The position numbers and the translations under genes are program-made. The notes beneath the pieces were generated by a model. It made no database searches, had not been told where the DNA came from, and worked only from the letters and a program-made list of their open reading frames with translations. DNA of 64,000 nt, taken from assembly GCA_002791275.1 (NCBI GenBank), contig PFWT01000006.1, positions 8,831 to 72,830 of the forward strand. Reading direction: 5' to 3'. This document shows, piece after piece, positions 7,806 through 56,283 of this stretch (position 1 is its first letter; each line of letters opens with the position of its first letter). The stretch comes from Candidatus Uhrbacteria bacterium CG_4_9_14_3_um_filter_41_35. GTDB lineage: Bacteria > Patescibacteriota > Patescibacteriia > UBA9934.

Positions 7806-7890
7806 TAGTACACCTAGTTTTACCTATTTCGTTCACTTTTGTCAACCAAGATTAAATAAAAAAGCTACTGTTTCCAGTATCTTTTTATGC

Positions 7891-9201
7891 TTATTTTCGC
7901 TCACCAGATCTAGCGAGTAGCGCCAGAACAAAGACCGCTAAAGTCTGCCCGCTCCAGCTCGTCCAAATGTAGTGATCAAAAAATGTGATCGTTAAAATTA
8001 AACTAGCCGTCATAAAAGCAAAGACCGCATCGATGTGTGAGAAACGTTTAAAATTAATTAGCGTAGCAGTGATAACAAGAGCGATTAGAATAAACAGACC
8101 GAGAATGCCGATCTCACCAACCACCAGCAATGGCACATTGTGGACTGGCTGATATTCAAACCACTGTCTATTAGGGAAAGCTTCGTGAATAGCCAAAGTG
8201 TAATTACCGAGCCCATAGCCAAGCAACCAGCTAGAACCGATCACCTCTGGGAAATCTCTGTACTGATCGAGTCGTTCGCTTATAGCGTGTGATTCAACCG
8301 GGCTGACACCGGAGAATCTTGAAAGTATAGCTGAGCTAAATAGCGTAATAAGTAGTGCTAAAACCACCATAAAACCCACAGCCGGTCCCACCAAGCGCTT
8401 GGCGTAACTTGGTCGCTTCACCAAAAATATGACAGTGCCAAGCACCACACCAACCGCCAGCCCAGCAAACGCAGACCTTGAAAAAGTCAGGATTAGGCCA
8501 AGTGACAGTAGAACACCAATTAAACTAAAAACTATTTGTTCAGAGTTTTTCTTTACTGACTGTAAAGTTGAGAAAATAGCAACAAGGCCAACTGCCAAAT
8601 ATCCGCCAAAAATATTTGGGTGTGAAAAACTACCGTAAGCTCTTAAAACTCGAGTATTACCAATAAGTAGAACTGCATCGCCGAGCCTTTCAGATGATCT
8701 TGATGCTAAACCTAAATAAGTTGAAGCAAACGACGCTCCATTAAAAAATTGAAAAACTCCTAACATCACCGGTAGCACTAAACCGAAAATAAAAGCTTTT
8801 AATAAAAATTTGAGCTGAACCCTTTTGTCGAGCAAAAGCAAAAATAGAACAAAAGAAAATATCAACTGAACCAAACTTGTGGAAGCTAGCGTTTTATTGA
8901 TTGAAAAAAATAAAGAAAAAATCGTAGCTAACCAAACTAAAGCCAGCCCCAGCACCACCAGTTTAGCGTAAACTTTTTTCCATTTCAGATCTAACACCAG
9001 TAACGCTATAAATAAAACCAGCATCTGTGTTACATACAAACTCTGTATTCCGTACTCGTACGGCGAGCCACCAATATTTACCTGACCGAAAATAAATCGT
9101 GTTTGCCAGGGTAAGGAAAAAAAGAAAAGTGCTAAACCGTAATTCAAAATTTGCGTTTTAGAAATGGTCTTCATTCGCCTGGCAATTTTCGAAAAATTCA
9201 T
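7891..9201 (-). CDS. Polytopic membrane protein, O-antigen ligase/polymerase (Wzy_C)-like
   Basis: 436 aa with at least 10 predicted TM helices and a large periplasmic-type loop. Architecture resembles WaaL/Wzy. No motif-level confirmation. Confidence 0.45.
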   Translation of the reverse strand: MNFSKIARRMKTISKTQILNYGLALFFFSLPWQTRFIFGQVNIGGSPYEYGIQSLYVTQMLVLFIALLVLDLKWKKVYAKLVVLGLALVWLATIFSLFFSINKTLASTSLVQLIFSFVLFLLLLDKRVQLKFLLKAFIFGLVLPVMLGVFQFFNGASFASTYLGLASRSSERLGDAVLLIGNTRVLRAYGSFSHPNIFGGYLAVGLVAIFSTLQSVKKNSEQIVFSLIGVLLSLGLILTFSRSAFAGLAVGVVLGTVIFLVKRPSYAKRLVGPAVGFMVVLALLITLFSSAILSRFSGVSPVESHAISERLDQYRDFPEVIGSSWLLGYGLGNYTLAIHEAFPNRQWFEYQPVHNVPLLVVGEIGILGLFILIALVITATLINFKRFSHIDAVFAFMTASLILTITFFDHYIWTSWSGQTLAVFVLALLARSGERK

Positions 9202-11126: not shown

Positions 11127-11922
11127 AACTCTATCATTATAACAGAAACTAGACACAAAGTATTTCAACAATAAGATTCTTCGCCGTGATTCACGTTAGG
11201 CTCAAAATGACGCGGTTTGTAATTTTCATCGAGGTGCCAAACGTCAGTCTCAGAATGACGGTTTGGTTTTAATGATACGATGTGATTTTTATGCCGTTGT
11301 ATTGATTAGTCACCCTTCACTCATACCGTCATCCTGAAGCTGGCGACGACTTACGCTGAAGGATCTCCTTCGTTCCGTACTGAATCGAAACGCATTTACG
11401 ATATAATTCAACACTGAGATTCTTCGGTGTAATCCACGTTCACCTCAGAATGACGGTTTGGTTGGTTTAATGAGCTTAGCTTTGAACTTTATCCTTCACT
11501 CATACCGTCATCCTGAAGCTGGCGACGACTTACGCTGAAGGATCTCCTTCGCCCTGTGCTGAACCGACATTTGTTTGGTGATTCGGTAATGAGATTCTTC
11601 GGTGTGATTCACGTTCACCTCTGAATGACGGTTTAATTAGATTCTTCAATGTGCCAAACGCTAGGCTCTAAATGACGGTTTGGTTTCATGAGGACAATTT
11701 TATTCTATTGCTTCTCACCCATACCGTCATCCTGAAGCGAGCGCCAGGTTACGCTGAAGGATCTCCTTCGTTTAGCTGAACCGACATTTACTTAGTGATT
11801 CAGCAATGAGATTCTTCGGTATGGTCCACGTTCACCTCAGAATGACGATTTGGTGCGTTGTCTAGCTTATCCGATGTTGTAAAAATAAAATACAATCTTT
11901 GTGAGCATAAAATGCTCACAAA

Positions 11923-11973
11923 CTAAGACTGAGTTGCAGATGCGACTCAGTCGCATCTGCAACTCAGTCTTAG
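11923..11973. repeat. Perfect 24-bp-stem hairpin (ctaagactgagttgcagatgcgac-tca-gtcgcatctgcaactcagtcttag), preceded by an 8-bp-stem hairpin gtgagcat-aaa-atgctcac at 11901..11919
   Basis: Inverted repeat verified base by base. The identical stem occurs in copy 2 (38040..38090), but there the 3-nt loop is the reverse complement (tga). Confidence 0.9.
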
Positions 11974-11993
11974 ATAATAAATAATAAACTTGC

Positions 11994-12018
11994 AAATCAA
12001 ATCAAATCAAATCAAATC
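11994..12018 (+). repeat. (AAATC)5 pentanucleotide microsatellite; 3 perfect units in copy 2
   Basis: aaatcaaatcaaatcaaatcaaatc read directly from the sequence. Confidence 0.9.
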
Positions 12019-12116
12019 AAACCGTAACCCAGGCCTTGACTAGGGTCAATCAGTAAATTAACAAAGCTCTTTTCGTGACCTAAAACCTAACGCCCAATTC
12101 CTAACTCCTATAATAC

Positions 12117-12151: not shown

Positions 12152-12910
12152 TTATTTCTTCGCCTCCACCTCCACAACATTGCCAACCTTCACTGTTTTC
12201 TTATCACTCAAGAAAATCTTGTAGAGGATAATCGTTAGGAAAGTTGTTACTAGCCAGTAAAGCATTATTCCACCTGGTAGTGATGTTGAACCAAAGAGCA
12301 GAGTCATAGCTGGCATCATATAGATCATCATCTTATTCATACTTGCTGCCATATCCTCATCCATTGCTCCTGATTGCTTTCTAACATCAGGTGCTGGTCT
12401 GGTCTGAACTGTGTATTTAACCTGGTAGTACTGCGCAATCGCTGCCGCCACCGCTAGCGGGATAGAAACCACGGCTAGATCAATACCAAACGAAACCGAC
12501 TCAATCACTCCTGGGTTATGCACAAAACCGTACAAAATAGTGGGATCAACTTCCCCCAATCCTTTTTGCAAAACTTGAAAAAGTGCAATAAAAATTGGTA
12601 ATTGTACTAAAAGTGGTAAACAAGAAGCAAACGGATTAACATTATTTTCTTTGTAAACCGCCATCAACTCCTTCGACATCGTTTCTTTATCGTCTTTATA
12701 CTTCTCCCGAATTTCCTTAATAATTGGCTGAATCTCCTGCATATCTTTCTGGCTCTTTAAAGTCTTGAAAGTTAACGGAAATAGGAGCCCCTTGATAACC
12801 ACGGTCACAGCCACAATCGCTAGACCAATCCCCGCTCCAGGCCAAGCGTCGTAGAACCAAACCAGTAGATTGTAAAGTGGCTGATAAAAAATTGCAAAGA
12901 AAATATCCAT
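12152..12910 (-). CDS. yidC: Membrane protein insertase YidC (short Gram-positive/CPR type)
   Basis: 252 aa, five TM segments with a conserved hydrophilic first-TM region and a basic C-terminal tail. Confidence 0.85.
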   Translation of the reverse strand: MDIFFAIFYQPLYNLLVWFYDAWPGAGIGLAIVAVTVVIKGLLFPLTFKTLKSQKDMQEIQPIIKEIREKYKDDKETMSKELMAVYKENNVNPFASCLPLLVQLPIFIALFQVLQKGLGEVDPTILYGFVHNPGVIESVSFGIDLAVVSIPLAVAAAIAQYYQVKYTVQTRPAPDVRKQSGAMDEDMAASMNKMMIYMMPAMTLLFGSTSLPGGIMLYWLVTTFLTIILYKIFLSDKKTVKVGNVVEVEAKK

Positions 12911-18697: not shown

Positions 18698-21600
18698 TTA
18701 TAGATTTTTAGCCGAAATATCGAAGAATCGTTCAAAGAAACTTGTTAGCTTATTTAAAACATTTTCTCGTTTTTTGCCATAACCGCCATCAGGAGAAAAA
18801 CGAGATGGGCGATTTATCATTATTTTACTAATTACAGTACCGGTTGTCGCTACATTTCCGTCTCTAAAAGCATTATTTATGAATTTGTAGGTAGCTTCTG
18901 GGTCAAGGTTTTCATTTTCAATTATTTTGTTGAGTTCTTCAATTTTCTTTTCTTCTACAAATTTTTGCCAATCTTCATCAATGATTGAATGAACATCAAG
19001 AGAAGTAATAAATTTATTGATAAGATCTTTTTTATTTCGGAGTTCAACACTAGAATCAATGGCTTTATTAATATCAACTAAAAGCTCTTTGTTTTTAGTA
19101 TGATCTTCATGATAGTGCTTAATAAGACCTAGAACATAATCAATATTAATTTCTACTTGTTTAATAAGCTCCATTTCAAAGACCACATCGTCATTAACAT
19201 TTTCTTTTTCTCCCTCTTCACCTTTACGAAATTCATTATATAAATCAATGTACATGCTATGGTAATCTTGCACATCACGCTCAGTCAAAATTTCATTTCC
19301 TGCAAATTCATCAAAAGTTGTAAGGATGTTTCGGACACGCAAAACCGCTCCGTATGATCTAATAAAATCTGTTTGAATCTGCTCTCCTACAATCCTTTCT
19401 CCTACCGGGAAATTTTCCAAAAGCTCATCAATCAAACTTTTGTATCCTCGGACTTCTTTATCGTCGTCTTTATAACCATTGTAATAGTCATTATAAGCTT
19501 TAAGAAGAACAATCCCACTGGCTTCCTTATCTCCAAAAAGTGCAATAGATTCGTTTGTCGCTTTTTCTAAATTGCGAAAACAAACAATATTTCCAAAGGT
19601 TTTTACACTATTCAAAATACGATTAGTTCTAGAAAATGCTTGAAGTAAACCATGCAAACGCAAGTTTTTATCTACCCAAATGGTATTCAGAGTTGTAGCA
19701 TCAAATCCAGTCAAAAACATGTTTACTACAATCAGAATATCAATTTCTCTATTTTTAACTCGCTCACTAACATCTTTGTAATAGTTTTGAAATTTATCTG
19801 ACGAAGTATCATAAGAAGTGCCAAACATTTTATTGTAATCACTAATGGCATTTTCAAGAAAATCTCGAGAACTAATATCAAGTCCGCTTGTATCTTCAGA
19901 ATTTTCATCAATCATTCCGTCCGCGTCTTCATCATTTACTCCAAAACTAAAAATTGTTGCTATTTTAAGTCGTTTATCGCTAGGTTCGTCGGCTAATTGT
20001 TTTTTAAATTCAAGATAATACTTTTTTGCCACATCAATAGAAGAAACGGCGAAAATTGAATTAAAGCCCGCTAGTCTGCGATCCTGTATTTTATAAAAAC
20101 TATTTCGTTTGGTTTTTTGGTCAAAGTGTTCCCGAATATATTTCACAATGTTTTCCAGTCGCTCCGGTGCTGAAAGAACAGCCTCGCGATCAATATCACG
20201 AACTTGAGCGTCTTCAATATTTTCCGCTTCATGAACGGTTGAAACATAATCAACTTTAAACGGTAAAACATTTTTGTCAGCAATAGCGTTAACAATTGTA
20301 TAGGTGTGAAGTTTCTCGCCAAAAGCCTGCTCGGTAGTTTTAAAATCAAGCCGACCACCAGATGAAGAATTTACAGCAAAAATAGGCGTGCCAGTAAAAC
20401 CAAATAAATGATATTTACTAAATGCTTTTACAATACTTGCATGCATATCGCCAAATTGCGAACGATGACATTCATCAAAAATTAAAACAATATGACCGTC
20501 AAAAATAGTATGATTTTTATTTTTACTTATAAATCTATCTAATTTTTGAATTGTGGTAACGATTATTCGAGAGTTTGAATCTTCTAACTGTTTTTTTAAT
20601 TTAGCTGTACTCGTATTACTGTTCGCCGCCCCTTTTTCAAATTTATCGTATTCTCGCATTGTTTGATAATCCAAGTCTTTACGATCAACTACAAACAATA
20701 CTTTGTCTATATACGGCAATTTACTAGCCAACTGAGCAGTCTTAAAACTTGTCAAAGTTTTTCCCGATCCGGTTGTATGCCAAACATAACCGCCAGCCTC
20801 AACTGTTCCGAGTTTTTTATAATTTGTACTAACCTCAACCCTGTTCAATATTCGTTCGGTCGCAACAATTTGATATGGCCTCATTACCAAAAGTTGCTTT
20901 TCGGTAGTAAATACGCAATATTTAGTTAGAATATTTAAAATCGTATGCTTAGCAAAAAATGTTTTGGCAAAATCCATTAAATCAGTAATCGGCCGATTGG
21001 TTGCGTCTGCCCACCAGCTCGTAAATTCAAAACTATTGCTCGATTTTTTTCCTTTTTTAATTTTACCCTCGCTTGATTCTTTTATGTGTTGAAATCTGGT
21101 TGTATTGCTGTAATATTTTGTATGAGTTCCGTTTGAGATGATAAATAACTGCACATATTCAAAAAGTCCGCTGGAAGCCCAAAAACTTTCTCGTTGATAA
21201 CGATTAATTTGATTAAATGCTTCGGAAATAGCAACTCCACGGCGTTTTAACTCAATATGAATAAGAGGTAGTCCATTCACAAGTACCGTCACATCATAAC
21301 GATTAGCCCGCTGTCCGTCTTCGGTCGTATATTGATTAATTACTTGCAGGCTATTATTATGGACATTTTTCTTATCTATCAAGTCTATATTTTTAAAAGT
21401 TCCGTCATCTCGGTCTAATATTTTCGTGCTGTCTTCTTGAATAGTAGTGGTTTTTTCTTCAATACTCTGATTTGGATTAGCGATAACACTCACAAAAAAC
21501 TTTTCCCATTCAGTATCTGAAAAAGTAAAATTATTTAATTTTTCCAGCTGCTGACGCAAGTTTAACACCAATTCATTTTCTGAAGTGATATTCAAATATT

Positions 21601-21754
21601 CATACGCTTGAGTTTCCAGTTGCTTAATAAAAGCACGCTCAAGCTCGGCCTCACTTTGGTAGTGAGCCACTCTTTTTTCATCAGACACATACTCGGAAAC
21701 AACCGTGCTTTGTGTGCTTTCAGCGACTAAATTGTATTTGTTCTTATTTGGCAT
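18698..21754 (-). CDS. hsdR: Type I restriction enzyme R subunit (HsdR), type IC (EcoR124I-like)
   Basis: 1018 aa with DEAD-box helicase motifs (GSGKTLTSFK; FVVDRKDLDYQT; DECHRSQFG) and the PD-(D/E)xK nuclease region (NRYDVTVLVNGLPLIHIELKRRG). Long colinear identity to EcoR124I HsdR as recalled from memory. 11-bp overlap with hsdS. Confidence 0.95.
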   Translation of the reverse strand: MPNKNKYNLVAESTQSTVVSEYVSDEKRVAHYQSEAELERAFIKQLETQAYEYLNITSENELVLNLRQQLEKLNNFTFSDTEWEKFFVSVIANPNQSIEEKTTTIQEDSTKILDRDDGTFKNIDLIDKKNVHNNSLQVINQYTTEDGQRANRYDVTVLVNGLPLIHIELKRRGVAISEAFNQINRYQRESFWASSGLFEYVQLFIISNGTHTKYYSNTTRFQHIKESSEGKIKKGKKSSNSFEFTSWWADATNRPITDLMDFAKTFFAKHTILNILTKYCVFTTEKQLLVMRPYQIVATERILNRVEVSTNYKKLGTVEAGGYVWHTTGSGKTLTSFKTAQLASKLPYIDKVLFVVDRKDLDYQTMREYDKFEKGAANSNTSTAKLKKQLEDSNSRIIVTTIQKLDRFISKNKNHTIFDGHIVLIFDECHRSQFGDMHASIVKAFSKYHLFGFTGTPIFAVNSSSGGRLDFKTTEQAFGEKLHTYTIVNAIADKNVLPFKVDYVSTVHEAENIEDAQVRDIDREAVLSAPERLENIVKYIREHFDQKTKRNSFYKIQDRRLAGFNSIFAVSSIDVAKKYYLEFKKQLADEPSDKRLKIATIFSFGVNDEDADGMIDENSEDTSGLDISSRDFLENAISDYNKMFGTSYDTSSDKFQNYYKDVSERVKNREIDILIVVNMFLTGFDATTLNTIWVDKNLRLHGLLQAFSRTNRILNSVKTFGNIVCFRNLEKATNESIALFGDKEASGIVLLKAYNDYYNGYKDDDKEVRGYKSLIDELLENFPVGERIVGEQIQTDFIRSYGAVLRVRNILTTFDEFAGNEILTERDVQDYHSMYIDLYNEFRKGEEGEKENVNDDVVFEMELIKQVEINIDYVLGLIKHYHEDHTKNKELLVDINKAIDSSVELRNKKDLINKFITSLDVHSIIDEDWQKFVEEKKIEELNKIIENENLDPEATYKFINNAFRDGNVATTGTVISKIMINRPSRFSPDGGYGKKRENVLNKLTSFFERFFDISAKNL

Positions 21755-22865
21755 ATTCTTTTTCTTTGAAAGTTAAAAGTTTCCCGCGGTAATATTCATA
21801 TTGCTGTCTGCGAGCTTTGAGTTCAGCGGGAAGACCGATTGAAATGTCATTTACAAGTGCATCAAATTTGTCGAGGATTGAAACTATTCTTTTTTGTTCG
21901 GTAAGTGGAGGTGTTGGGATTTTTATTTGATTTAAAATTGCCTGAGTTAAACTTGGACGTCCTGATCCTGTATCCAATTTCATTAAATCAACAGTTTTCA
22001 AATAGTGAAATAAAAACTTTGGAATAATTTTTTCTTCGTTTATTTCAGTATAATAAATAGTATCTACATTCCAAAACGGATCCTCTAAATAGTAAAGGTT
22101 TGTAATACTTCCTTTTCTTGGAATTAAAACAGTAGGCTTATCGTAGACCGATTTATTTACATAACCCATAACCCCTCCTGTGCCATAAACAGGAATTTTA
22201 CCATTTCCTAACTTCTTCCAGTCTTTTCCATTCTTAATCTTTGCAACACCTTGTAGTAAATCCCATTTTGAATTCGCATCAAAAGTCAACAACTCATTGC
22301 GATAATGCTCATACTGCTTTTTTCTTGCTTCCAGTTCTGCTTCCAGTTCTGCTTCCAGTTCTGCTTCCAGTTCTGTAAAACTATTAAGAATTTTAACAAT
22401 TTCTTCTTGGATGGCAAGAGGTGGGATGGGGATTAAAGTTTTTTTCAGAAAACTAAAGTGTCTTGTGTATTTACCTGTTTTTGAATAAAAATTATTTAAA
22501 GCATAGTAAAAATATTTTATATTTAATATATTTGAATTTGTTTTTAGAATTTTAATACCGTCCGCCCCTTGAGCAAAAGAAAAATCAATATATTTTAGTG
22601 CCTCAGTGTGGTCTCCGAAAATAACATATAAATCTTTAGCCATAACTGCAGCATTATCATCAGTATAGCCAACAATAAAATCTTGTCCTTGATCTATGAT
22701 AGGAAATTCACCTATTTCCTTGTAGTATTTTTTTGTAAGCTTTTTAGGAGGAGCACAGGTTGTTACGATTTTATTTATAAGCAAATTATCAATATCAAAA
22801 AACTCCACACCTGCTGGGCATAGTTCTGAGATTAGTTTTTCGATTTTTGGTTGGTTGGTTGTCAT
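21744..22865 (-). CDS. hsdS: Type I restriction-modification specificity subunit (HsdS), type IC-like with (ELEA)4 central repeat
   Basis: Two target-recognition halves, each ending in a conserved coiled-coil (ELEARKKQYEHYRNELLTF and ELKARRQQYEYYRGKLLTF). A central tandem 4-aa repeat TELEAELEAELEAELEA is encoded by a 12-bp DNA repeat. 373 aa. Confidence 0.85.
   Translation of the reverse strand: MTTNQPKIEKLISELCPAGVEFFDIDNLLINKIVTTCAPPKKLTKKYYKEIGEFPIIDQGQDFIVGYTDDNAAVMAKDLYVIFGDHTEALKYIDFSFAQGADGIKILKTNSNILNIKYFYYALNNFYSKTGKYTRHFSFLKKTLIPIPPLAIQEEIVKILNSFTELEAELEAELEAELEARKKQYEHYRNELLTFDANSKWDLLQGVAKIKNGKDWKKLGNGKIPVYGTGGVMGYVNKSVYDKPTVLIPRKGSITNLYYLEDPFWNVDTIYYTEINEEKIIPKFLFHYLKTVDLMKLDTGSGRPSLTQAILNQIKIPTPPLTEQKRIVSILDKFDALVNDISIGLPAELKARRQQYEYYRGKLLTFKEKEYAK
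22321..22385 (-). repeat. 12-bp tandem repeat (ttccagttctgc)x4 plus a degenerate fifth unit inside hsdS; encodes ELEA repeats in the central spacer-length-determining region
   Basis: Direct reading: cttgc TTCCAGTTCTGC x4 TTCCAGTTCTGT. Confidence 0.9.
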
Positions 22866-24328
22866 ACTAATAATGGAATTAAAGATTCAATGGAAGTTTT
22901 AAGTTCTTCATCTGTAAATTTTGTATTATTTGGATTTTCGGGGTGGTGAATTATATTTCTAATTTTAGTGGGTAAGGTAGTATTGTATTCAATAACGGTT
23001 TTGTCTGACTTTAAATGTTTATACTTTTTGTCTATTTTAATAGCTTCACCACTTTTATTAAAAAGATATTTATCAAAATCTTCTGATTTACAATATTTCT
23101 CGTCTTCTAAAATAGCTTTTGCTTGAATAAAACCATAAAGCTCGTTGTGAAATTCAACAGATAAAACGCCAAACGCATAATAATTAATTTCCCCCCAAGA
23201 AGGACTTGAGGATCCAAACAAATCGAATTCATTGCCAGCTTCAACTTTGTTCATTCCTGAATCTTTTGAGAATATATTCATTGAATGGGTTTCTTTTTTA
23301 TATTTTTTCAATAAATATGGTGAGTGAGTAATTATAAAAATTTGTGACTTGTCGGATATTTTTTCAAGGGCGTCAAGAAGTTTGTTTTGAGCTTGCGGAT
23401 GTAAAAAAGTTTCTGGCTCATCAATAAAAAATAGTATTGGTTTAGAAATTCCGTTTTCATCTGATGAAGAAATATCAGCATACACTTGAATAAGTGCTAA
23501 TGCTAAGGCTCGTTGCATTCCTGTACCTTTTTCAGAACTTTTTGTTTCAATGCCATTTTCAGATAGAGCAATATTCCCCGTTTTGAAAAAACTCTCAATT
23601 TCAGGTAATAAAAAACTAAATCTTACTTCTGTTTCTCCGTACTGTTCAGACAAAATACTTTGTATTTTTTGTTCAACTGGTTGTAGCGTTTTAGCTAAAC
23701 TATTTTCGCCCTCTCCAAAAGTTTCTTTATGAGAATTTTGAAAATTTCTCCAAGTATCAGAAGTAATAAAATCTTTTGTTATCGTATTTATAATTTTTCC
23801 GCTAATTTTTGTTTTTGAAAAATCAGAAATATCACCAGAATTTGTATCAGCCCAAACAAACTGTGCATCAAAAAGTGCCGTAATTGTATTATCTATTCCT
23901 GTAGGATTCTCAAATTGGTTTGCAGTTGGATTAAACACACGAACATTTTTAATATCAAGCTTCTTTTTCTTTCCGTCTTGTGTAATTTCTTTTTCTTCGC
24001 TAGAACGCATTATGCGTAAACTTTTTTCACCATTAGTATCAATGAGGGAAGATTTATATTTTTTTAAGGCATCTATTTCAACAATAGATTCAATATCCTC
24101 ACCTTTGAATTCAATTTCAATAGAAACAAAACTATCTGTTTCAATTTCTGTCTTAGTGATGACTTCACTTCTATCCTTTTTTGAGCGTATAAAGTCAATA
24201 GCTTCAAAAACTGATGATTTGCCACAATTATTGTCACCAACAAAAAAATTCACGCCTTTGTCAAAAAGAATTTCGTGATCACCTTTAAAGCCTTTAAAAT
24301 TATGGAGTTTTATTTTTGATATATACAT
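22862..24328 (-). CDS. ABC-type ATPase fused to a C-terminal HEPN-like (Rx4H) domain; PrrC/RloC-like putative anticodon nuclease / restriction-linked abortive-infection protein
   Basis: Walker A FVGDNNCGKSS, ABC-signature-like SEKGTGMQRA, Walker B PILFFIDEPETFLH and H-loop IITHSP. The ~145-aa C-terminal domain carries KIRNIIHHPENPN (R-x4-H). 4-bp overlap with the hsdS start. 488 aa. Confidence 0.55.
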   Translation of the reverse strand: MYISKIKLHNFKGFKGDHEILFDKGVNFFVGDNNCGKSSVFEAIDFIRSKKDRSEVITKTEIETDSFVSIEIEFKGEDIESIVEIDALKKYKSSLIDTNGEKSLRIMRSSEEKEITQDGKKKKLDIKNVRVFNPTANQFENPTGIDNTITALFDAQFVWADTNSGDISDFSKTKISGKIINTITKDFITSDTWRNFQNSHKETFGEGENSLAKTLQPVEQKIQSILSEQYGETEVRFSFLLPEIESFFKTGNIALSENGIETKSSEKGTGMQRALALALIQVYADISSSDENGISKPILFFIDEPETFLHPQAQNKLLDALEKISDKSQIFIITHSPYLLKKYKKETHSMNIFSKDSGMNKVEAGNEFDLFGSSSPSWGEINYYAFGVLSVEFHNELYGFIQAKAILEDEKYCKSEDFDKYLFNKSGEAIKIDKKYKHLKSDKTVIEYNTTLPTKIRNIIHHPENPNNTKFTDEELKTSIESLIPLLV

Positions 24329-24337
24329 AATTTTTAA

Positions 24338-24420
24338 TGATTTTTTTCAATATCCGCCATAATCTCATCAATCGCCGTCCTAAGCTCATTTTGCCCCACT
24401 GCAATTTTTAATTTCGCGTT
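24338..24420 (-). pseudogene. 3'-terminal remnant of an hsdM gene (encodes ...KIAVGQNELRTAIDEIMADIEKNH*); there is no start codon, and a stop lies a few codons upstream
   Basis: Nucleotide and peptide similarity to the 3' end of the intact hsdM at 25487.. (IVARQNELRNAIDEIVVDIEGTN*). It has the same spacing to the downstream gene start as hsdM has to dinD. Confidence 0.65.
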
Positions 24421-24628
24421 TGTTATATTATATTTCAGCCATTTTACAAGCTAACTGAATCTCTTCATCTTGGCTTTCTAACCACAGATCAACGTCTAAC
24501 TTATGTTCAGTTTTATTTTGGCTAATCATCTCCAATACAGGTTTTTTGTATTTAGATCAATAAATTTGGCACCATTATTGTCCTCAAAGAATTTTAATAC
24601 GTTTTCTACATTTATTGGATTTTTCATA

Positions 24629-25477
24629 TTATCCTTCATTATCCTTTAAAAATTTTTTATCATCATTCCCAAGATAGTTTTTCTCACTAATTACACTTCT
24701 ACCAAGCTCTTTTTCAGTTTCCTTCCTCGCGTTGCCTGCCACCTTACCACCTCTTTTGGCTACTCTTTTACTTTCAGTAATTCCTTTTGGTTTTTCTTGA
24801 CTCGATATTTCCGTGGTAACTTTTTCGCCAAGCATTGTAAAAATAAGCTCGAGATCCGTCATATTGTCTCTAAGATTTGCCTTAGATTTATCGGGAATAT
24901 TTTTGAGCTTCATATATTCGCTCGGCGTCATTCCAAAAGTCGCTTTGCTGATTTCTGCGGTCAAAATAGCATAGTCTCTTTGCTCTGTGATTCCTCTCTG
25001 TTTCCATTCATCCGTTAAATTTTGACGGATAGCAATTCCACGAAGTCTTTTGTCTATCCAATCTTGAGGATAGCCCTTTGCTTCATAGAGCTTTTTCATT
25101 CTTTCTTGGGCCAGTTCTGGATTTTCTATTTCCTCGATTCTTTCATAACCCACTTTGGCAAGCCACCTTTTGAAAGGTTCAGCTTTTGGAGAAGGGATGG
25201 ACTGGATAATTCTTAAAATCCCTTCAGTATTTGCACAATCTGTTTCTCTCATTTTTCCGTCTGGTGCAAGGAGTTTCAACCCGTGACAAAATGTCACGAC
25301 TTCACTTCCTTCTTCATTAAGTCTCTGTTTTAATTTTCTCCAATAAGCTCCCGCATCAGGACTTTCTGTAAGAGCAAAACATATATCAACGACCGAAAAA
25401 TACCATTCTTCATTATGCCAAATTTTACGAATTTGTTTTTTTTCAAACAGTGCGATTTTGTTGTGAGTATTTGCCAT
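24629..25477 (-). CDS. DinD-like / Bro-N domain protein (DNA-damage-inducible protein D family)
   Basis: N-terminal Bro-N-like segment (KIALFEKKQIRKIWHNEEWYFSVVDICFAL). The C-terminal region (KSKANLRDNMTDLELIFTMLGEKVTTEI; basic tail KRVAKRGGKVAGNARKE) resembles E. coli DinD as recalled from memory. 282 aa, 9 bp downstream of hsdM. Confidence 0.6.
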   Translation of the reverse strand: MANTHNKIALFEKKQIRKIWHNEEWYFSVVDICFALTESPDAGAYWRKLKQRLNEEGSEVVTFCHGLKLLAPDGKMRETDCANTEGILRIIQSIPSPKAEPFKRWLAKVGYERIEEIENPELAQERMKKLYEAKGYPQDWIDKRLRGIAIRQNLTDEWKQRGITEQRDYAILTAEISKATFGMTPSEYMKLKNIPDKSKANLRDNMTDLELIFTMLGEKVTTEISSQEKPKGITESKRVAKRGGKVAGNARKETEKELGRSVISEKNYLGNDDKKFLKDNEG

Positions 25478-25486
25478 ATTACTATT

Positions 25487-27064
25487 TTAGTTAGTTCCTT
25501 CAATATCCACCACAATCTCATCAATCGCATTTCGAAGCTCATTTTGCCTTGCGACAATTTGGGAAATTTTACTGTTAAGTTCTTTTATATCAATTATTTC
25601 GCGAGTATCTTCTGCTACTACATAACTTGATACTGCAATATTATAATCATTTTCGCTAATAGTTTTATTATCCACCAGTTTTGCAAAATACTCTGTGTCT
25701 TTACGCTCAATAAACGCATTAAGAATTTTTTTGCGATTTTCTTCACTTAATTTGTTTTTATTTCCACCTCGCACAAATTCTTTAGAAGCGTCTATAAACA
25801 AAGTCTTATTATCTTTTTTACTTTTTTTCAATATAACAACACAGGTTGCGATAGTTGTTCCGAAAAAGAGATCGGGCGGTAATTGTATAACTGAATCTAT
25901 GTAGTTATTATCAATCAAATATTTACGGATTTTTTGTTCAGCTCCACCACGATAAAGAACCCCCGGAAATTCAACAATTGCCGCGGTTCCGCTGGTTGAG
26001 AGCCAAGAAAGCATGTGCATGGTAAACGCTAGATCTGCCTTGCTTTTTGGTGCCAAAACTCCTGCGGGAGAAAAACGAGGATCATTTATTATTAAAGGAT
26101 TGGCATCGCCGTCCCACTTGATTGAATATGGCGGATTGGAAACAATGGCGTCAAAAGGTTCATCGTCCCAGTGTTTTGGATCAGTAAGAGTATCACCATG
26201 GGCAATATCAAAATTGTTATAATTGATATCATGCAAAAACATGTTTATACGGCAGAGGTTGTAGGTAGTGAGGTTTATTTCCTGTCCGTAGAAACCAAGA
26301 CGAACATTGTCTTTACCGAGCACTTTTGCAAATTTAAGAAGAAGTGAACCGGAACCGCAACAAGGATCATAAACTTTATTTACTTCTGTTTTACCAACGG
26401 TTGTAATTTCAGCCAAAAGTTCACTTACTTCTTGAGGGGTAAAAAATTCTCCTCCAGATTTACCAGCATTTGAAGCATACATGGTCATCAAAAATTCATA
26501 AGCATCACCGAAAGCGTCAATTGTGTTATCTCCATAATCACCCAAGCGAAGATCACCGATAGCTTCTAACAGTTTTACAAGTTTTTGATTTCTTTTCTCA
26601 ACTGTTCCGCCTAGCTTATTTGAGTTCACATCCAAGTCATCAAACAATCCTTTAAGATCGTCTTCGCTATCAAATCCTTTGGCAGAATTTTCGATATTAT
26701 CAAAAACCTTAGAAAGTGTTTCGTTAAGCTTTGCATCGCTACGGGCATTTTTATGAACATTTATAAAAAGTTCGCTCGGCAGAATATAAAAACCTTTATT
26801 AATTATTGTTTCTATTCTACCAAATTCCGCTTCTTTATCACTCAACTTAATATAATCAAATTGTTCTTGTCCGAAAACTCGCCTTTCATCTTCATTGATA
26901 AAGTTAGTTAGATTTTCGCTAATGAAACGATAAAAAAGCATTCCAAGAACATACTGTTTAAAATCCCAGCCGTCGACACTTCCTCGCAAGTCATTCGCAA
27001 TTTGCCAAATAGCACGATGTAACTCCGAGCGTTCTTGCTCTTTTGTTGTATTTAAATTTGTCAT
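25487..27064 (-). CDS. hsdM: Type I restriction-modification N6-adenine DNA methyltransferase (HsdM), type IC (EcoR124I-like)
   Basis: Motif I DPCCGSGSLLL and motif IV VSNPPYSIKW. N- and C-terminal regions colinear with EcoR124I HsdM (recalled). 525 aa. Confidence 0.95.
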   Translation of the reverse strand: MTNLNTTKEQERSELHRAIWQIANDLRGSVDGWDFKQYVLGMLFYRFISENLTNFINEDERRVFGQEQFDYIKLSDKEAEFGRIETIINKGFYILPSELFINVHKNARSDAKLNETLSKVFDNIENSAKGFDSEDDLKGLFDDLDVNSNKLGGTVEKRNQKLVKLLEAIGDLRLGDYGDNTIDAFGDAYEFLMTMYASNAGKSGGEFFTPQEVSELLAEITTVGKTEVNKVYDPCCGSGSLLLKFAKVLGKDNVRLGFYGQEINLTTYNLCRINMFLHDINYNNFDIAHGDTLTDPKHWDDEPFDAIVSNPPYSIKWDGDANPLIINDPRFSPAGVLAPKSKADLAFTMHMLSWLSTSGTAAIVEFPGVLYRGGAEQKIRKYLIDNNYIDSVIQLPPDLFFGTTIATCVVILKKSKKDNKTLFIDASKEFVRGGNKNKLSEENRKKILNAFIERKDTEYFAKLVDNKTISENDYNIAVSSYVVAEDTREIIDIKELNSKISQIVARQNELRNAIDEIVVDIEGTN

Positions 27065-28436: not shown

Positions 28437-28513
28437 TGGTGGGCGCTGAGGGACTCGAACCCCCGACCCTCTCGGTGTAAACGAGATGCTCTAGCCAGCT
28501 GAGCTAAGCGCCC
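28437..28513 (-). tRNA. tRNA-Val (anticodon TAC), CCA encoded
   Basis: Manual cloverleaf: GGGCGCT-TA-GCTC..GAGC-A-TCTCG-TTTACAC-CGAGA-GGGTC-GGGGG-TTCGAGT-CCCTC-AGCGCCC-A-CCA. Confidence 0.9.
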
Positions 28514-28531
28514 TTATTCATTTGTGAGAGA

Positions 28532-28560
28532 AATATAACATAGACCTAAATTTTTGACAA
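28532..28560 (-). promoter_or_regulatory. Sigma70-like promoter for tRNA-Val(TAC) (TTGTCA-17-TATATT on minus strand)
   Basis: Hexamers read from the reverse complement; divergent to the tRNA-Leu promoter. Confidence 0.45.
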
Positions 28561-28566
28561 GTGTTG

Positions 28567-28595
28567 TTGACAAGTCGCCATTTTCTAGTTATATT
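28567..28595 (+). promoter_or_regulatory. Near-consensus sigma70 promoter for tRNA-Leu (TTGACA-17-TATATT), 8 nt upstream of the tRNA 5' end
   Basis: ttgacaagtcgccattttctagttatatt read directly; a second TTGACA lies 12 bp upstream. Confidence 0.6.
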
Positions 28596-28603
28596 CGTTG
28601 CAC

Positions 28604-28691
28604 GCGCGGGTGGTGGAATTGGTAGACACGCAGGCTTGAGGGGCCTGTGCCTGTAATGGGCGTGGAAGTTCGAGTCTTCTCTCGCGCACCA
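28604..28691 (+). tRNA. tRNA-Leu (anticodon GAG), long variable arm, CCA encoded
   Basis: Manual fold colinear with E. coli tRNA-Leu: GCGCGGG-TG-GTGG-AATTGGTAGACAC-G-CAGGC-TTGAGGG-GCCTG-variable arm-GGAAG-TTCGAGT-CTTCT-CTCGCGC-A-CCA. The ORF 28589..28792(-) overlapping it is spurious. Confidence 0.9.
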
Positions 28692-37504: not shown

Positions 37505-38190
37505 CCGTGATTTTTTGTGTCGTTATTTTGACTAGTCGCCCCGCACCCATACCGTCATCCTGAAGCGAGCGACGATTCACGCTGAAGGATCTCCTTCGCC
37601 CTGTGCTGAACCGACATTTGCTTGGTGATTCGGTAATGAGGTTCTTCGGTGTGATTCACGTTCACCTCAAAATGACGGTTTACTTAGGTTCTTCAATGTA
37701 ACTCACACCAGGCTCTGAATGAGGATATGATGAAATTCTTCGCCGTGATTCATACTAGACTCAGAATTACGGTTTGGTTTTTAGTAGTGCGATGTGATTT
37801 TTATGTCGTTATTTTGACTAGTCACCCCTCACCCATACCGTCATCCTGAAGCGAGCGACGATTCACGCTGAAGGATCTCCTTCGCCCTGTGCTGAATCGA
37901 CATTTGCTTGGTGATTCGGTAATGAGATTCTTCGGTGTGATCCACGTTCACCTCAGAATGACGATTTGGTGCGTTGACTAACTAGTCAATATTGTCATAA
38001 ACAAAAACACAATTCTTGTGAGCATAAAATGCTCACAAACTAAGACTGAGTTGCAGATGCGACTGAGTCGCATCTGCAACTCAGTCTTAGATAATAAAAA
38101 AACACCGCAATCAAATCAAATCAAATCAAATCAAACCGTAACCCAGGTCTTGGCCAGGGTCAATCAGTAAATTTAAAAAGCTCCTTTTAT
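37505..38190 (+). repeat. Composite ORF-free mosaic repeat element, copy 2. It has two ~290/185-bp direct sub-repeats containing the A and B modules, the 8-bp hairpin (38018..38036), the perfect 24-bp-stem hairpin (38040..38090, loop tga), (AAATC)3 and the same conserved tail.
   Basis: Direct comparison with 11172..12075: module B (cacccataccgtcatcctgaagcgagcgacgattcacgctgaaggatctccttcgccctgtgctgaaccgacatttgcttggtgattcggtaatgag) is repeated at 37543 and 37835. The hairpins and tail match copy 1 nearly base for base. Confidence 0.85.
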
Positions 38191-38254
38191 AGCCTAAAGC
38201 CTAATACAAAAATGCATTCCTATTTTTTACACAAAGTGGTATAATTTTTTTTAA

Positions 38255-55856: not shown

Positions 55857-56277
55857 GCTTAGAAAATTGGATGATCACTTGAGTATTTATATTCGAGAGG
55901 AAAGTCCGGACACTCCTTATATGGCAACGTATATTGAAAACGAGCGTCGCTAACGGCGACCGGAATATGTATTGGGAATCAAGGAATTGGAGAATCTTTA
56001 AGTCTAACTTAATCATCCCCTGCCTCCTGATTAAATCTAGGGAAAGTGCCACAGAGACAATACTAGCCAAGCCTAGCTTGGTGAAAGGTGAAAAGTTTGG
56101 TGAGGTCGTTTACGGCTACACCGATCGCCCTGCGGTGACGCAGTGGTGTGGTAAACCCGCTTAGGTGCAAGAACAAATTTGGTAGTTTGCTAGAGATATT
56201 TGGCAACAAATATCGCAGATAGATGATCATCGTCCGGCTCCGCCGGATACAAAATCCGGCTTATAGATTTTCTAAGT
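55857..56277 (+). ncRNA. rnpB: RNase P RNA (bacterial type, rnpB)
   Basis: Universally conserved GAGGAAAGTCCGGAC (P4 5' strand) near the 5' end, GGTGAAA-GGTGAAA region and ACAAAATCCGGCTTAT (P4 3' strand). The P1 helix is formed by gcttagaaaat (55857-55867) and attttctaag (56265-56274). ORFs 55834..56070(-) and 55934..56164(+) in the track are spurious. Confidence 0.8.
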
Positions 56278-56283
56278 GCTAAA

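Follow-up and report, generated by a model that had tools for sequence, protein, structure and literature searches.

The subject of this analysis is a gene-free segment in a 64,000-nt stretch of DNA (the window, in whose coordinates array positions are given throughout) from Candidatus Uhrbacteria bacterium CG_4_9_14_3_um_filter_41_35, a member of the Patescibacteria within the candidate phyla radiation (CPR). The segment, 11171–12090, is filled by a mosaic of short repeats (hereafter copy 1). On the left an LPG_synthase_TM-family gene begins, its ATG preceded at 9 nt by an extended −10 element (TGTTATAAT, − strand); on the right comes an intrinsic terminator, that of a YidC gene encoding 252 aa. 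This agrees with the gene context described in an initial annotation of the sequence. That annotation also reported the absence of any open reading frame (ORF) of 60 aa or more, and this holds: the longest ORF inside 11172–12075 encodes 42 aa.

Two kinds of repeat had been distinguished, a module B occurring three times and a module A occurring at least five times. Both counts are borne out. Pattern matching places B at 11322, 11501 and 11720 (with no matches in shuffled sequence), and A is present in five to six copies by repeat analysis and in six according to R1, a covariance model built from the aligned modules and scored over the whole window with filters off. The relationship between the two is simpler than the initial annotation had it, however. 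It had noticed in A a reverse-complemented copy of B's start, but the match extends over all of A, which is a diverged reverse complement of B; the two are a single element read in opposite orientations, a point that had been missed. Copy 1 is accordingly composed of nine copies of a single 46-nt hairpin module, three on the + strand (“B”) and six on the − strand (“A”), the latter comprising four strong copies (11171, 11414, 11589 and 11806) and two degenerate ones (11217 and 11636). The layout of the element is given below, where the modules are labelled as repetitive extragenic palindromes (REPs) and R1 scores are in bits.

11171–11216, − strand: REP module (A, GCC/GGC stem subtype), R1 54.7 bits
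11217–11264, − strand: degenerate REP module (A-type), head-to-tail with the preceding A; R1 13.5 bits, E 0.12; repeat family D4
11268–11321, unstranded: AT-rich spacer S (33% GC), recurring ahead of B modules, from repeat comparison
11323–11369, + strand: REP module B1, with CGTC tag, stem AT-CCT-[GA]-AGC and 14-nt loop; R1 65.9 bits
11373–11417, unstranded: linker L1, an imperfect palindrome between the REPs of a dimer; 71% of cells paired
11414–11459, − strand: REP module A (GGTG/CACC subtype), partner of B1; R1 67.9 bits
11502–11548, + strand: REP module B2, R1 65.9 bits
11552–11592, unstranded: linker L2 (GCTGAA...TTCGGT palindrome), from the linker alignment
11589–11634, − strand: REP module A, partner of B2; R1 60 bits
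11636–11681, − strand: degenerate REP module in a head-to-tail run of period 47; R1 16.8 bits
11721–11767, + strand: REP module B3, R1 63.7 bits
11771–11809, unstranded: linker L3 (GCTGAA...TTCAGC palindrome), from the linker alignment
11806–11851, − strand: REP module A, partner of B3; R1 64.2 bits
11898–11922, unstranded: hairpin with 10-bp stem, TTTGTGAGCA-taaaa-TGCTCACAAA, kept in 5/7 tails
11923–11973, unstranded: perfect 51-bp palindrome with 25-nt arms, near-invariant in seven diverged loci
11993–12021, unstranded: pentanucleotide microsatellite (CAAAT)5.8, its unit number and sequence differing among loci
12022–12090, unstranded: conserved tail (CCGTAACCCAGG..GGGTCAATCAGTAAATT..), shared with copy 2
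37520–38205, + strand: copy 2 array of two B and four A modules with the same hairpin/palindrome/microsatellite tail, from sequence alignment and R1

The array is thus an alternation of REPs with two spacer families, S (AT-rich) and L (the palindromic linker), together with head-to-tail runs of A modules at a period of 46–48 nt. Opposite-orientation units take two forms, B-linker-A dimers (linkers of 39–45 nt) and A-spacer-B junctions (spacers of 35–54 nt). GC content follows this architecture, at 43–57% for modules and 33–36% for spacers against 40% for the window. Several details of the right end needed amendment: the terminal hairpin exists as annotated but with a stem of 10 bp rather than 8 bp, the perfect hairpin has 25-nt arms (100% complementary) around 1 nt rather than 24-bp arms, and the microsatellite is (CAAAT)5.8 rather than (AAATC)5. 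The conserved tail was correctly identified and is common to both copies. Copy 2, in which B recurs at 37548 and 37834, lies between a DHH/NrnA-like gene terminator and the gene for the CCA-adding enzyme, both of these on the other strand, and aligns closely with copy 1 over the last B-linker-A unit and the whole tail. R1 finds 15 modules in the 64 kb, every one of them inside copy 1 or copy 2.

Covariation within the module hairpin

Read in the same direction, the two module types are CCGTCAT-TCTGA-GS...SC-GAAGA-ATC (the reverse complement of A) and CCGTCAT-CCTGA-AGC...GCT-GAAGG-ATC (B), and they share one fold: an unpaired CGTC, the pairs A-T, T-A, N-N′, C-G and T-A, a tandem G.A/A.G, three to four further pairs and a loop of 12–14 nt. 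Across 52 distinct modules taken from this window and from related contigs, Watson–Crick pairing is nearly always kept at four variable stem positions, which switch by double changes (C-G in 23 and T-A in 28; A-T in 24 and G-C in 27; G-C in 35 and C-G in 17; C-G in 40 and T-A in 11), and 49/52 modules are fully paired. Pairing holds in 93.7% of the cells of the alignment, compared with 82% in shuffles and 28–44% in slid registers, and 55 cells are altered on both sides where 20 are expected. The first two stem pairs are constant (A-U in 39/39, U-A in 39/39), and CGTC or TGTC precedes the stem in all aligned modules; this tag formed part of the extraction pattern, and R1 recovers the same modules and no others. 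At the 3′ end the modules close with ...GGATC-TCC or ...GAATC-TCA, conserved in each case and different from CCA.

The initial annotation had instead emphasized a long-range stem of about 14 bp joining B to A. Fold prediction for single B...A units, which it had suggested, does return such a structure: the whole unit is predicted to form one long hairpin in which B pairs with A and the linker sits at the tip (z between −5.7 and −3.2, whichever strand is folded). Taken singly, modules from this lineage have no folding advantage over shuffled sequence. Covariation nevertheless fails to support the long-range arrangement. Among 22 distinct B-linker-A units, two of the 14 pairs of the B5′:A3′ stem never form and a third is broken in 11/22; one pair of the B3′:A5′ helix is likewise broken, and no long-range pair is changed on both sides. 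Under the local model, the same units show two compensatory pairs in the A hairpin (11/22 units each, none unpaired). On these data the long-range stem is rejected as a conserved structure, despite being the minimum-energy fold; it arises as a by-product when one palindrome is present in two inverted copies.

There is no evidence for an RNA acting from one strand, given the equal folding of the two strands and a contradictory wobble bias. Mean folding energies are −49.9 kcal/mol (+) and −49.1 kcal/mol (−), with the + strand better in 12/22 units; the linker palindrome has 13 G.T vs 39 A.C on the + strand, and the central B:A pairs are rich in G.U on that same strand. The Rfam search that had also been suggested (Rfam 15, at the gathering threshold over the window and up to E 10 on the element) matched no relevant family, sub-threshold microRNA-hairpin models alone matching, on the 51-bp palindrome; seven cross-phylum loci searched at the gathering threshold gave no match either. 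The element keeps one orientation and the genes that flank it differ in theirs. With no Rfam match, equal strand folding and an orientation uncoupled from flanking genes, the option of a structured non-coding RNA gene array put forward by the initial annotation is not upheld. Two further candidates were dropped on reading the sequence: CRISPR, there being no unique spacers, and hammerhead or group II intron domain 5 elements, there being no catalytic cores.

The hairpin is by no means confined to this lineage. When one genome per species was scanned for exact matches to CCGTCATCCTGAAGC-N8-24-GCTGAAGGATC, 28 stretches were returned, against an estimate of ~0.005 expected by chance. The metagenome-assembled genomes (MAGs) concerned are labelled Acidobacteriota, Omnitrophota, Patescibacteria, Saccharibacteria and Verrucomicrobiota, and further Bacteroidota, Oligoflexales, Gemmatimonadales, Gammaproteobacteria/Pseudomonadales and Micavibrio (Alphaproteobacteria), about nine higher taxa overall. 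The hairpin base with its tandem G.A (CGTC-AT-CCUGA-AGC...GCU-GA-AGG-AU-C) is identical across these taxa and the rest of the stem covaries, stem centres being unrelated in sequence yet self-complementary (92 extra stem pairs vs 14.7 expected).

Some of these loci have an organization of their own. The Patescibacteria MAG JBAZQK01 carries single B-35 nt-A dimers on five contigs (L004, L005, L007, L008 and L027), nested in 13-bp terminal inverted repeats (TAGGACTTACGCG / CGCGTAAGTCCTA), a packaging that resembles that of miniature inverted-repeat transposable elements (MITEs). At loci from a Thermoanaerobaculaceae MAG (L006, L009, L015, L021 and L022) and an Acidobacteriota MAG (L016), the tandem-G.A hairpin occurs several times per locus alongside related ...CTCAGGATGAC modules; multi-REP arrays may exist in Acidobacteriota too.

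Further arrays and the corresponding sites in relatives

A metagenome scan with a lineage-specific B pattern returned 17 loci, representing 13 distinct further arrays of 0.13–0.7 kb in metagenome contigs, and R1 identifies 60 modules on these further loci, all within arrays. Fifteen of 15 arrays are intergenic; their gene contexts are convergent, divergent or tandem, and array orientation is independent of the genes. Units within one array are 72–92% identical to each other, and it is because the long units are too diverged that Tandem Repeats Finder misses them, reporting the microsatellite alone and no long-period repeat. Contigs from three samples carry copy 1 with 100% identity. Two contigs (L039 and L041) represent the same locus and lie one 218-bp unit apart between samples. 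A hybrid contig was also recovered (L033; ENA ERZ27293359 k141_815510), which matches the window at 100% identity over a stretch running from NusA through the palindrome and, beyond that, the L041 locus, again at 100%; its identity to two different loci on either side of a shared tail led us to drop the notion of a diverged strain, which leaves a recombinant or an assembly chimera, joined inside the shared palindrome tail. Several contigs break off inside arrays: L032 and L034 end there, and the contig of L054 begins at about window position 38034, in the copy 2 tail. Neither the palindrome, the REP nor the whole element found a match among viral contigs or in phage and plasmid collections.

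Seven array loci carry the 51-bp palindrome. In these, ACAAA plus the palindrome is essentially invariant even though the flanks have diverged to ~60% identity; the exceptions are a centre base that may be C, G or A, a single change within an arm in L035, and L037, where the last 4 nt of the right arm are replaced. The neighbouring hairpin, microsatellite and tail do vary, the microsatellite being (AAATC)5–7, (AAACC)6 or absent. At L047 (~12180–12400, viewed on the − strand), a tRNA-like 3′ end (TGGTGCGCCGTGGAGGATTTGAACC...) stands directly beyond the tail and probably belongs to a tRNA gene.

Relatives allowed the sites of both window copies to be compared. At the copy 1 site, where the gap here is ~1 kb, relatives ranked by YidC identity have 57 bp (83%, L055), overlapping genes (71%, L057) and 45 bp (70%, L056), with no REP in any of the three; the gene order from YidC to LPG_synthase is kept in L056 and L057. 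At the copy 2 site, one relative has a gap of 65 bp and another (L058, with a 77%-identical DHH/NrnA-like protein) has a single canonical dimer in 211 bp. This dimer is made up of CGTC-ATCCCGGA-TTCGA-TCCGGAAT-C, 21 nt, and the reverse complement of CCGTC-ATCCCGGA-TTCGA-TCCGGGAT-CCA; its REP, with an 8-bp stem, a 5-nt loop and the end GGGAT-CCA, fits the published stem and loop of CGTC-tagged REPs exactly. The flank that follows the dimer, GGTTTGGTG, is the same as that following the A modules of the window. From the comparisons at the two sites it follows that the arrays are lineage-specific expansions, and in at least one case an array occupies the site of a single REP dimer in a relative.

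The promoter side of the copy 1 site offers a separate observation. A −10 box, TTATAAT, lies 6–9 nt before the ATG of the LPG_synthase_TM-family gene (window 11127–11145; L056 4760–4783), a short distance which, judged from the sequence, suggests leaderless or near-leaderless transcripts in these Uhrbacteria.

We infer the following mechanism for the arrays as a whole. The element would act at the DNA level, as a non-coding selfish or structural repeat. A REP dimer would have been seeded in the intergenic gap between a terminator and a promoter, from which the array would have grown, and would still change in length, by unequal recombination or slippage between its repeated units. The hairpins would probably form by extrusion when the DNA is single-stranded or in RNA made by read-through, and would there be recognized by a trans-acting enzyme that propagates CGTC REPs, although we know of no enzyme that does so. 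Recombination breakpoints, assembly breaks and possibly transcription barriers would then be side effects.

Searches for a partner enzyme were negative within their scope. No transposase or recombinase appears in the gene tables of the window, and Pfam identified none in ten small ORFs flanking arrays; tblastn with IS200 TnpA, a weak test, gave no match. Nor was there seen, in the window or the loci, a gene for a phage or insertion sequence (IS) recombinase that might use the palindrome as an integration site. In the copy 1 relative L056 (GCA_964482565.1), a 209-aa Y1_Tnp gene of IS200/RAYT type (RAYT, REP-associated tyrosine transposase) lies at 7996–8625 between direct copies of GAGGCTAAGCCTTTGTGGATAA, with a shorter and more diverged match to GAGGCTAAGCCTTTGTGGATAA near 7881 and no CGTC REPs around the gene.

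At least 15 non-coding arrays, of 0.13–1 kb, are unexpected in a small CPR genome, given that the gaps of relatives at these loci are only 45–65 bp, and this suggests that the arrays are tolerated or useful. They also have a practical consequence, in that such arrays break short-read assemblies and can yield chimeric contigs, which bears on the quality of CPR MAGs.

Elsewhere in the window, a low-GC island (0.32–0.35 vs ~0.41) at 18698–27064, next to tRNA genes at 28440–28688, encodes type I restriction-modification proteins (HsdR and HsdM), an SMC_N/AAA_15 ATPase, a Bro-N protein and a helix-turn-helix protein, and looks like an acquired defence island. At 55859–56279 lies a bacterial class A RNase P RNA of 421 nt, compared with 367 model positions, with insertions of ~50 nt.

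Class assignment and alternative explanations

The superfamily of CGTC-tagged REPs, a large class of repeats, was defined by Di Nocera, De Gregorio and Rocco (2013, PMC3733652). That paper includes Neisseria dRS3 and Rickettsia RPE-4 and RPE-6 in the superfamily, mentions large clusters in Neisseria and Wolbachia, and lists as hosts Proteobacteria, Chlorobi, Bacteroidetes, Spirochaetes and Thermotogae. The traits that it gives for the class are a terminal CGTC (or TGTC/CCTC), a stem whose first two positions are AT, a tail that is short and has the consensus CCA, a predominance of opposite-orientation dimers with spacers of 20–100 bp that are sometimes structured, and no transposase; the four published families have a stem of 8–9 bp and a loop of 4–5 nt, exceptions in loop length being mentioned. 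In the same paper, the spread and role of CGTC REPs are called unknown, no dedicated transposase having been found by the 2013 survey. The Uhrbacteria modules share with this superfamily the unpaired CGTC tag, the A-T/T-A stem start, a mostly intergenic location, opposite-orientation dimers with 20–100 bp spacers and the lack of an associated transposase. They too have a short 3′ tail, but one that departs from the consensus CCA. The tandem-G.A subtype was compared with the four families at the level of their published descriptions. A literature search with the repeat sequence itself found nothing, and we found no report of REPs in CPR/Patescibacteria genomes in the literature, one preprint mentioning both terms.

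We consider it likely that the element is a cluster of CGTC-tagged REPs in a mosaic array of the kind known as Neisseria intergenic mosaic elements (NIMEs) or bacterial interspersed mosaic elements (BIMEs), expanded as a selfish or structural repeat at the level of DNA. It is a known kind of repeat, neither a new RNA gene nor a new element type. The MITE/REP-like mobile family, another option of the initial annotation, survives in its REP half, which can now be narrowed to the CGTC-tagged class; MITE hallmarks are missing.

Several observations weigh against this assignment. The stem described here (five pairs, a 2×2 G.A and three to four pairs, with a loop of 12–14 nt) departs from the 8–9 bp and 4–5 nt of the CGTC families, and in the sequence examined the modules occur solely in arrays and often head-to-tail, arrangements that PMC3733652 treats as rare or negligible for CGTC REPs. 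The invariance of the B arms is partly a matter of ascertainment, exact B arms having been set by the search patterns. No mobilizing enzyme was found, so that “mobile” is argued from presence and absence only, and there is no clear target-site duplication at 11171/12090 or 37520/38205. The near-invariant palindrome and the microsatellite feature in no described REP or NIME and are left unexplained by a REP model. Lastly, the difference in unit number and the hybrid contig, which would fit array turnover, could both be artefacts of short-read metagenome assembly.

A function mainly at the RNA level we regard as unlikely. Under this explanation, transcripts reading through the arrays would fold into the REP hairpins and the 25-bp and 10-bp hairpins, which would serve as terminators, insulators or 3′ stabilizers of mRNA (roles shown for some E. 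coli REPs) or give rise to small RNAs. In its favour, the folding of the units is far stronger than that of shuffles (z −3 to −6), and Di Nocera et al. (PMC3733652) argue for the transcription of many REPs. On the − strand, moreover, the palindrome and the 10-bp hairpin resemble terminators in tandem followed by T-rich sequence, and in 4/7 tail loci a gene read on the − strand has its 3′ end directly at the tail. The YidC gene, however, has a canonical terminator of its own outside the element, and the tail adjoins gene starts in copy 2 and L041; there is no strand preference in folding, wobble pairs favour the + strand in one helix and the − strand in another, and no Rfam family is represented. 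A terminator role requires neither nine modules nor an invariant palindrome, and since a terminator would need no invariance of sequence, that role leaves the conservation of the palindrome unaccounted for. What this conservation would imply, on sequence grounds, is specific recognition by a protein. Such recognition would suit a NIME-like recombination device, in which the REP hairpins or the 51-bp palindrome are bound by a recombinase or transposase and flanking genes are exchanged, an explanation that we judge quite improbable. It draws on a proposal made for Neisseria, where dRS3 and the Nf-phage transposase would have this role, on the NIME-like architecture and GC wave, on the hybrid contig that joins two array loci through their shared tail, on the variation in unit number at one locus, on the strict conservation of the palindrome in seven diverged loci and on the envelope genes (LPG_synthase_TM and Wzy_C) that adjoin copy 1. 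Set against these are the lack of any recombinase, integrase or transposase in the 64-kb window or the ten small flanking ORFs tested, the negative results from the phage, plasmid and viral collections, the chance that the hybrid contig is an assembly chimera, and the complete identity of copy 1 in three independent samples.

A broader version of the same idea would make the hairpin base the recognition element of a widespread trans-acting enzyme, a mobilizer or recombinase of CGTC REPs, and the palindrome-capped arrays a NIME-like recombination system driving gene rearrangement and exchange; we offer this as a speculation whose truth is very doubtful. To a neutrally decaying segmental duplication without constraint on the hairpins we attach hardly any credence. 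Such decay would accord with the 72–92% identity of units in an array, with the long-period repeat unreported by Tandem Repeats Finder and with a linker palindrome just 71% paired. Yet at least 15 arrays stand at unrelated loci, the same hairpin base with covarying centres recurs in many phyla, and a canonical REP dimer is found at the orthologous copy 2 site of a relative; in the REP stems, compensatory changes preserve the pairing amid variable loops and linkers, which counts against neutral decay.

Comparison with known repeat systems

The closest architectural parallel to the CGTC-REP cluster is offered by the NIMEs, in which dRS3 palindromes flank repeat families of 50–150 bp in arrays of variable length with a GC wave (Bentley 2007, PMC1797815), and which are reported not to have been observed outside Neisseria (Parkhill 2000; Bentley 2007, PMC1797815). 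Like NIMEs, the Uhrbacteria elements are long intergenic arrays of short palindromes of the same superfamily, with repeated spacer families between them, a GC content that rises over the palindromes and falls over the spacers, and an apparently variable length; the implication of NIME arrays in recombination we also count as a likeness. The palindromes themselves differ, dRS3 being ATTCCC-N8-GGGAAT and the module here ATCCTGAAGC-N12-14-GCTGAAGGAT (or ATTCTGAGS...). The dRS3 sequence was not matched here, and the link to dRS3 therefore holds at the superfamily level only, as drawn in PMC3733652. In further contrast to NIMEs, no phage or IS110-type recombinase is seen, and the arrays bear a cap made up of a perfect 51-bp palindrome and a microsatellite. 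Were NIME architecture to occur in a second, unrelated lineage, the recombination-array hypothesis could be tested by comparing the two.

BIMEs and REPINs offer a parallel of a different kind. In these systems, known from E. coli and Pseudomonas, GTAG-tagged REPs are mobilized by RAYT transposases. The arrays resemble BIMEs in having REPs in alternating orientation with conserved linkers, and REPINs in that an inverted REP doublet is predicted to form one long hairpin. They differ from both in the tag, CGTC rather than GTAG, and from REPINs in that the doublet, there a dispersed replicating unit, sits here within arrays; no RAYT/Y1 transposase was found in ~360 kb (overlaps included) of the window and related loci. 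As for MITEs, there is no terminal inverted repeat beyond the REPs themselves.

Within the CGTC superfamily, what sets these elements apart as a variant is the combination of a tandem G.A stem, a large loop, an array-only occurrence in the sequence examined, head-to-tail runs, a palindrome–microsatellite cap and a CPR host, Candidatus Uhrbacteria standing outside the phyla listed for CGTC REPs.

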